In this document: piece by piece, positions 15,570 through 15,898 of the stretch
Numbering within the stretch: position 1 is the first letter of the stretch
How the letters are laid out: each line of letters opens with the position of its first letter
Source of the DNA: Eledone cirrhosa
Taxonomy: Eukaryota
Direction: 5' to 3'
Length of the DNA: 64,000 bases
NCBI GenBank assembly: GCA_964016885.1
Contig: OZ024742.1
Span: 315,332,001 to 315,396,000, forward strand
The notes under the pieces: model-generated
The model's database searches: none
Told to the model about the DNA's origin: nothing
What the model saw: the letters and a program-made list of their open reading frames with translations, nothing else
Position numbers and translations under genes: made by a program

Positions 15570-15898
15570 TTAGAAAGTGAGGTTTTTTTATAAAATGAAA
15601 AATAACCGAGGTGTCCTACACCAGTGAAAGTATAAAGAAAAAAAGATGAAATGGAAAATGCAACTGGAGTTTTATTTTTTTTTAAATATATATATTTATT
15701 TGGTTCCTTTACCAGTTTCGCAGTTCTTCTGCTTTTCATATATGATGTGAGAAAAACCACAGACCCTCCATCTCAACTCTACTTTTGAAAAGCAGAAGAA
15801 CTGCGAAACTGGTAAAGGAACCAAATAAATATATATATATTTTTTTTTAAATAAAACTCCAGTTGCATTTTCGATTTCATCTTTTTTTCTTTATACTT
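15570..15898. mobile_element. Fold-back PLE pseudo-LTR (non-coding) in (TA)n
   Basis: Inverted arms at about 15628-15738 and 15786-15898; another family member at 60285-60480. Confidence 0.8.
15782..15817 (+). ncRNA. Minimal type I hammerhead with UUGAAAA core
   Basis: CUU-UUGAAAA-GCAG(AAGAA)CUGC-GAAA-CUGG-UA-AAG; the stem III loop is the palindrome CCGG in the 60315 copy. Confidence 0.78.

Follow-up and report, generated by a model that had tools for sequence, protein, structure and literature searches.

In the 64,000-nt stretch of the Eledone cirrhosa genome analyzed here (the window), a motif with the layout of a type I hammerhead ribozyme lies on the forward strand (copy 1; Table 1). Read directly, it is CUU-UUGAAAA-GCAG(AAGAA)CUGC-GAAA-CUGG-UA-AAG, and both this sequence (with CYGG in place of CUGG) and the hammerhead layout had been given in the first-pass annotation, made by a model from the letters alone. 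Stem I is open-ended and pairs 15782–15784 with 15815–15817 (3 bp). The core U3 U4 G5 A6 A7 A8 A9 occupies 15785–15791, with U3 at 15785 and A8 at 15790, and is followed by stem II (15792–15795/15801–15804), which has 4 pairs, including G10.1–C11.1, and a 5-base loop. After G12, A13, and A14 (15805–15807), stem III (15808–15813) consists of A15.1–U16.1 and C15.2–G16.2 with a 2-nt loop, i.e. two pairs instead of the single pair first reported. N17 is A at 15814, and the predicted cut falls immediately 3′ of this A17, after GUA. All core letters therefore stand in type I order with a Watson–Crick 3–8 pair (U3–A8), and stems I, II, and III have 3, 4, and 2 pairs, respectively. The first reading had named the CCGG of copy 2 as palindromic; it is a perfect palindrome there, while the CUGG of copy 1 is an imperfect, wobble version (self-duplex −3.2 compared with −8.3 kcal/mol for CCGG).

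Table 1. Features of the motif's family and its surroundings, in window coordinates
Feature	Position	Strand	Basis or remark
Type I hammerhead motif (copy 1)	15782..15817	+	Read from sequence; descriptor scan with shuffles
Sense arm, insertion 1	15744..15898	+	Ends in (TA)n, without tail
Inverted 5′-truncated arm, insertion 1	15570..15738	−	Begins at core U4; 58-bp tail 15627–15570
(TA)n microsatellite, tail end of insertion 1	15470..15569	.	Sequence
(TA)n microsatellite, opposite end of insertion 1	15899..15957	.	Sequence
Insertion 2, single 196-bp copy with tail	60285..60480	+	Ends in (TA)n; 85–88% identity to insertion 1
Decayed hammerhead motif, insertion 2 (copy 2)	60315..60350	+	U3, U8, C10.4, stem III palindrome, A17
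Second U3–A8 family	49129..49222	+	Core UUGAGAA at 49133, long stem II, 7-bp stem III, C17
Context: GIY-YIG endonuclease fragment, neighboring Penelope-like element	14858..15313	−	Adjoins via common (TA)n tract
Context: canonical C3–G8 minimal hammerhead	62905..62947	+	~210 bp after RT/GIY-YIG-type frame 61818–62696

A descriptor composed after the motif had been seen was scanned over both strands of the whole window with seven 3/8 letter combinations. It returned 4 matches: copy 1, copy 2 (60318), and canonical C3–G8 motifs at 38924 and 62909. The control, 100 block-wise dinucleotide shuffles scanned for C3–G8 and U3–A8 alone compared with the seven combinations in the real window, gave 0.01 U3–A8 and 0.02 C3–G8 matches per shuffle. 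No Rfam hammerhead model matched at the 15782 locus; since the canonical motif at 62909 was missed too, Rfam models appear to cover such short hammerheads poorly. A MALAT1 Rfam match over the motif (21.9 bits vs a threshold of 70, E 0.38, sequence-only model) was set aside as chance, and an intron across the motif, starting from a donor-like GTGAGA (15747) or GTAAAG (15812), found no backing, with no deletion joints among the joints listed. The stem I 5′ strand and U3–A8 core together form a near-palindrome at 15779–15795 that gave rise to this MALAT1 match.

The motif is carried by a repeat of ~200 bp. Insertion 1 is a fold-back, i.e. two arms separated by 5 bases that both run out into (TA)n, and its 58-bp tail is present on the inverted arm and absent from the sense arm. 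The inverted arm holds a third, partial motif copy on the minus strand, from 15738 downward and starting at U4, which the earlier reading had missed. Because both arms are identical across the motif, CUGG was probably already in the template or has been homogenized between them. Together, the arms are predicted to form one hairpin (−157 kcal/mol) covering U4 onward. Penelope-like elements have been described with adjacent inverted 5′-truncated copies, a tail restricted to one end, and insertion into (TA)n (PMC8557442), and all three features are found at insertion 1; the tail is longer than the 30–40 bp usually described for these elements (PMC8557442). No tandem copies of the repeat occur in the window, where copies are inverted or isolated, with 44.5 kb between copies 1 and 2. 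Several sister repeats in the window are built likewise, and their hammerheads hold the same position near the 3′ end. The repeat is likely an end piece of a Penelope-like element, i.e. a terminal-repeat stub.

Copy 2 is decayed. The U3 and palindromic CCGG that had been claimed for it are present, the latter within a perfect ACCGGU in stem III, but position 8 is U instead of A, which leaves no 3–8 Watson–Crick pair and places the copy outside the type I core, and C at 10.4 breaks the fourth stem II pair. Given that A8 is near-fixed in public reads, this U8 is a change private to copy 2.

Evidence for the family at large comes from public sequencing runs, of which 4 of the 13 listed (X1, X11, X4, and X5) were aligned to 60150–60482, with copy 2 as the reference. 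X1 is possibly the window's own sample, X11 is a reduced-representation run, and X4 and X5 contributed 13 and 12 contigs, respectively. The first-pass annotation had made its reading depend on A8 and stem II pairing in a family consensus. A8 is borne out, accounting for 621395/622085 of summed contig depth in X1 (99.9%) and 1677/1724 reads in X11 (97%), with a ceiling for G8 of 0.1 and 2.7%, respectively. For stem II, the inner three pairs hold and the fourth is variable: position 10.4 is G in 79% of X1 depth and in 790/1674 X11 reads (T in 482, the remainder mostly C), and the pair is broken in about half of the X11 reads. Among 40 of 97 variant rows listed, there are no compensatory stem changes, the fourth stem II pair varying uncompensated, and as such the conservation may merely reflect descent. 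Variants at positions 3 and 17 and at the loop-3 C are likewise absent from 40 of 97 rows listed, and minority forms with C3, CUGG, or another N17 are possible.

Single contigs show how these letters combine. Specifically, record 22 of X5 (organism C; depth 36.6, 60285–60358) differs from copy 2 at four positions (60295, 60310, 60323, and 60328) and unites U3, A8, a 4-bp stem II, CCGG, and A17. Record 23 of the same run is copy 2 with A8, and ACCGGU is found in both records. The sole X4 contig (organism B) spanning the core is altered at 11.2, 11.1, and G12, and represents a broken copy.

Analyses of the ends of these sequences reveal how copies join and terminate. Among the joints listed, 6/6 are opposite-strand fold-backs at 60285–60287 and 0/6 are head-to-tail; contigs drop rare forms, and tandem arrays elsewhere could escape this count. 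Among the loose ends listed for X11, X4, and X5, those on the 3′ side pass via the tail into (TA)n, while upstream ends are heterogeneous (agreement 0.51 and 0.73) except for their final letters. These final letters match 15744–15751, at the start of the sense arm, and many copies thus seem to share a 5′ boundary ~70 bases upstream of the cut site, near 60277–60285. X11 depth has no step at the cut site, staying at about 1500–1830 from 60306 to 60365, and none of the X11 molecule ends listed falls there. Summed depths of 0.6–1.0 million, compared with 7–16 for single contigs, suggest tens of thousands of copies, depth not being the same as copy number.

No coding frame linked to the motif's family occurs within the window, the heterogeneous upstream loose ends reveal none, and three pattern scans of metagenome and viral contigs (mainly microbial and viral collections) returned 0 loci. 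The neighboring GIY-YIG fragment is 30% identical to the frame at 56616, and its assignment is supported by Atlas clusters. We rejected it as the family's gene because the neighboring element has its own inverted repeat (14133–14287/15321–15475); in addition, the best local match between family and fragment is gapped, lies inside the frame, and is reached by 1/200 and 3/300 shuffles, and BLAST gave no match. None of 47 candidates passed as longer relatives of this endonuclease, and a Pfam search of 5 frames found no significant family. The neighboring insertion as a whole (14010–15475) comprises an inverted arm, the GIY-YIG fragment, and a 3′ region that is long and rich in pyrimidines, where a decayed hammerhead may lie near 14480–14520 (−); one arm has a 36-base insert bounded by GT...AG near 14300–14335.

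Elsewhere in the window, hammerheads do accompany coding frames. The nearest Atlas clusters of frame 61818–62696 have GIY-YIG in 13–26% of members, and the canonical hammerhead that follows this frame shows that the E. cirrhosa genome contains hammerhead-bearing Penelope-like elements. Similarly, the GIY-YIG frame at 56616–57215 is followed by a decayed hammerhead at 57384–57421. The 62905 hammerhead has a 6-bp stem II and, in this copy, a nonpalindromic stem III GAAG. The 56121–57455 region is a fold-back pair (524 bp, 95%) with the GIY-YIG frame and the decayed hammerhead, C3–G8 in one arm and C3–A8 in the other. A perfect 234-bp palindrome at 44863–45096, which has (TA)n at its center and not at its outer ends, is the 3′ end of an endonuclease frame related to 62504–62666.

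A second U3–A8 hammerhead family, referred to here as the 49112 family, reads CCCC-UUGAGAA-stem II-GAAA-7-bp stem III (palindromic loop)-UC-GGGG and has an identical inverted twin at 48313 (−). The first-pass annotation took the 15782 family to be separate from it, and we agree: outside the core, their best local alignment scores 20, no better than shuffles (equaled by 219/300). The 49112 family shares U3–A8 but has C17, and with its long stem II and its 7-bp stem III under a palindromic loop it is a candidate for monomer activity. Partial copies lie near 60694, 24635–24753, 33526–33635, and 13660–13730, and several are truncated or folded back in stem II or loop II.

Two further hammerhead-like sequences were observed. 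An isolated canonical C3–G8 minimal hammerhead at 38921–38954 (+) has an extra base after A9, a 4-bp stem II, and a nonpalindromic stem III; the 12 bases upstream of it resemble those preceding the U3–A8 motif, possibly by chance. Another high-copy repeat (44474–44641, 59597–59886, and 60181–60262) ends on its minus strand in CTGATGA-AGGAC-TAATTT, straight into (TA)n, which corresponds to a canonical hammerhead reduced to its 5′ half by a break in loop II. In one copy, the sequence on either side of (TA)n forms a near-perfect palindrome, and in public reads this repeat reaches a depth comparable to that of the motif's family.

We considered the predicted folding of the motif by nearest-neighbor energies. 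In neither copy is a double hammerhead the most stable predicted state: it reaches −10.4 kcal/mol in copy 1, where the ground state lies at −20.2, and −8.9 kcal/mol in copy 2, against −15.7. Adding U3–A17 brings the energy down by another 1.4 kcal/mol, and summing parts suggests about −15 kcal/mol for an intact family version. In the monomer, which has a folding z-score of −0.51, stem II is predicted with p about 0.88 and stems I and III are unstable. Upstream UCAA is predicted to pair with U3 through A6 (p about 0.5), and downstream ACCA to cover the strand of stem III (p about 0.8). A U3–A17 pair stacked on helix I can also form, favored by 0.9–1.4 kcal/mol. Both window copies are likely inert: copy 1 because it is predicted to be buried in a hairpin with its own antisense arm, which is inverted and not tandem, and copy 2 because the 3–8 pair is lost.

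The U3–A8 pair has precedents. It was published for ~1,300 Schistosoma mansoni motifs tied to Cercyon Penelope-like elements (Cervera and De la Pena 2014, PMC4209133), which removes the surprise that the first reading implied, and C3–G8 to U3–A8 covariation is documented in several natural hammerheads, with covariants active in vitro (Perreault et al. 2011, PMC3088659). Unlike our motif, however, none of the natural U3–A8 variants in the accessible portion of the latter paper is described as having U3 with A17. A literature search found no U3–A17 hammerheads, although two studies beyond its reach (Lunse et al. 2017; Przybilski and Hammann 2007) may already cover U3 with A17. The Cercyon motifs are mostly single dispersed copies, with opposite-strand pairs occurring, and one of the Schistosoma motifs, Sm(4), shares the core letters UUGAAAA and a 3-bp stem I with the 15782 family (PMC4209133). 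By contrast, an additional base follows A9 in Sm(4), stem II is 6 bp long, loop 3 is missing, and position 17 is U (PMC4209133). In the 15782 family, A9 leads directly into a 4-bp stem II, loop 3 has 2 nt, and position 17 is A; the window yielded no gene linked to this family. The Marsupenaeus japonicus row of Fig. S3 in the same study is similar in lacking the extra base and in having a 4-bp stem II, A17, and a two-pair stem III with a 2-nt palindromic loop, but that motif is C3–G8 with a 5-bp stem I (PMC4209133). Of the strict traits of minimal hammerheads (an extra base between 9 and 10.1, a long helix II, and no loop 3), 0/3 are found here, and in shape the family is closer to the "small palindromic helix III" variants of that work (PMC4209133). 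On the explanation favored below, the known class of short U3–A8 hammerheads in Penelope-like elements gains one further family.

Two mobile systems offer parallels. In PAc, a Poseidon element of Anolis carolinensis, the hammerhead is likewise followed by ~100–130 bases to the insertion 3′ end (Frangieh et al. 2024, PMC11167929), and the optional tail, AT-rich targets, and (putatively for the 15782 family) uncleaved RNA as template are also shared features (PMC11167929). In that system, AT-rich DNA is cut, two start sites define the tail, uncleaved RNA is the template, and cleavage is protein-assisted and dispensable for insertion in vitro (PMC11167929). Unlike the 15782 family, PAc has C3–G8 and a start codon inside the motif (PMC11167929), whereas here there is neither a start codon nor a long frame downstream. 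Animal non-LTR retrozymes are similar in having a short noncoding unit and a type I hammerhead whose activity is predicted to depend on dimers (PMC7229834; bioRxiv 10.64898/2026.07.22.740005), but theirs form head-to-tail arrays giving circular RNA (PMC7229834), while the copies described here are solo or inverted with (TA)n ends.

In the explanation that we favor and consider probable, the motif has the anatomy of a type I hammerhead with U3–A8 and resides in a ~200-bp, high-copy, likely Penelope-like terminal-repeat stub, whose source RNA would cleave weakly after GUA and only when the stem III palindromes of two copies pair. Published minimal Penelope motifs cleave weakly and as dimers only (PMC4209133). 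U3–A8 would stand in for the C3–G8 tertiary pair, and two motifs carried on a single long tandem RNA from an active element may swap strands, forming a 6-bp stem III via ACCGGU, with the element's protein probably assisting dimer cleavage after GUA. The stubs would be reverse transcripts primed on nicked (TA)n: reverse transcription would begin 3′ of the motif, at either of two sites, and proceed on uncleaved RNA almost to the 5′ end of this template, in many cases folding back. Under a PAc-type model of this kind, stubs would be expected to have either of two 3′ ends, to retain the hammerhead intact, and to share a 5′ boundary, which agrees with the copies observed.

The same origin could also be paired with a hammerhead that is off, by design or decay, if U3–A17 extends helix I over the cut site and the motif is kept as a structural or protein-binding part of the RNA. 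We see this as unlikely, though several observations agree with it. A C3–G17 pair has been proposed as a trap of G17 hammerheads (PMC3884650), of which U3–A17 would by analogy be the counterpart, and the energy predicted to favor U3–A17 points the same way; yet a U–A pair is weaker than C–G, and tertiary-stabilized G17 forms still cleave (PMC3884650). The predicted pairing of both core strands with flanking UCAA and ACCA would mask the site further, but four-pair side helices easily arise by chance. Fig. S3 contains 56 motifs; position 17 is G, U, and U in its 3 U3 motifs, and its 6 A17 motifs are all C3 (PMC4209133), counts that are too small to test depletion, 0/3 being too few to mean anything. 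C17 in the 49112 family, the crossing of the cut site by copies without a step in depth, and the dispensability of cleavage for PAc insertion in vitro (PMC11167929) also fit a masked site, which sits less well with the retention of the entire catalytic core and palindrome in a high-copy family.

We give little credence to a nonautonomous tandem retrozyme, i.e. a unit of ~200 bp whose multimeric transcripts would be cleaved by dimeric hammerheads and then circularized. The unit size and the shared 5′ boundary are compatible with this origin, and a preprint derives retrozymes from Penelope terminal repeats (bioRxiv 10.64898/2026.07.22.740005), but retrozymes are head-to-tail tandem units of 150–450 bp, whereas the window has no tandem copies and none of the 6 joints listed is head-to-tail. 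In its 4-bp stem II, its small and palindromic stem III, and its lack of a 9b base, the motif does resemble canonical metazoan type I hammerheads, while stem I has 3 bp compared with about 6 with loop–loop contact, and the fold-backs, one-sided tail, and (TA)n ends are of Penelope type. Lastly, it is highly improbable that the hammerhead likeness arose by chance in an AT-rich repeat, in which case the meaningful structure, if any, would be the near-palindrome CUACUUUUGAAAAGCAG. This near-palindrome is the best predicted homodimer of copy 1, and the unremarkable monomer z-score and lack of an Rfam hammerhead match could be read in this light, but Rfam missed the canonical 62909 motif as well, and just 0.01 U3–A8 matches arise per shuffled window. 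All core letters are in order, with G10.1–C11.1 and the stem III palindrome, A8 is restored across the family, and the sister-repeat hammerheads hold their shared position near the 3′ end.

The weakly cleaving, dimer-dependent hammerhead remains our preferred reading; the self-masking alternative, although unlikely, is the boldest. On that view, a very abundant Penelope-like family would carry a hammerhead in which the change from C3–G8 to U3–A8, with A17 kept, created a U3–A17 pair. U3 cores would then follow a site rule of "not A" where the usual rule is "not G". The ribozyme would be inactive unless gated by the element's protein, or retained merely as an RNA signal, and the ~200-bp stubs, in their thousands, would have been copied from RNA that had not been cleaved. 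Together with the 49112 family (C17, long stem III), it would form a natural pair for testing what Penelope hammerheads do. The 15782 family offers a small, clean test, as U3 and A17 are predicted to close the cut site and an unrelated U3–A8/C17 family lies in the same window.

Other repeats surround these elements. By eye, from the list of open reading frames, we take 1181–4978 (−) to be a gypsy-like LTR element with breaks, 6863–11779 (−) an L1/Tx1-like LINE, and 19307–20899 (−) a DNA-transposase-like pair of frames; 42045–43202 (+), with a weak zf-RVT match, is presumably a fragment of a restriction-like-endonuclease LINE. The most frequent repeat in the window, which gave no match in the hammerhead scan, is found at 16319–16470 and about 12 other places, e.g. 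23145–23372, 29367–30166 (partly tandem), 41023–41224, 43939–44071, and 52403–52491.
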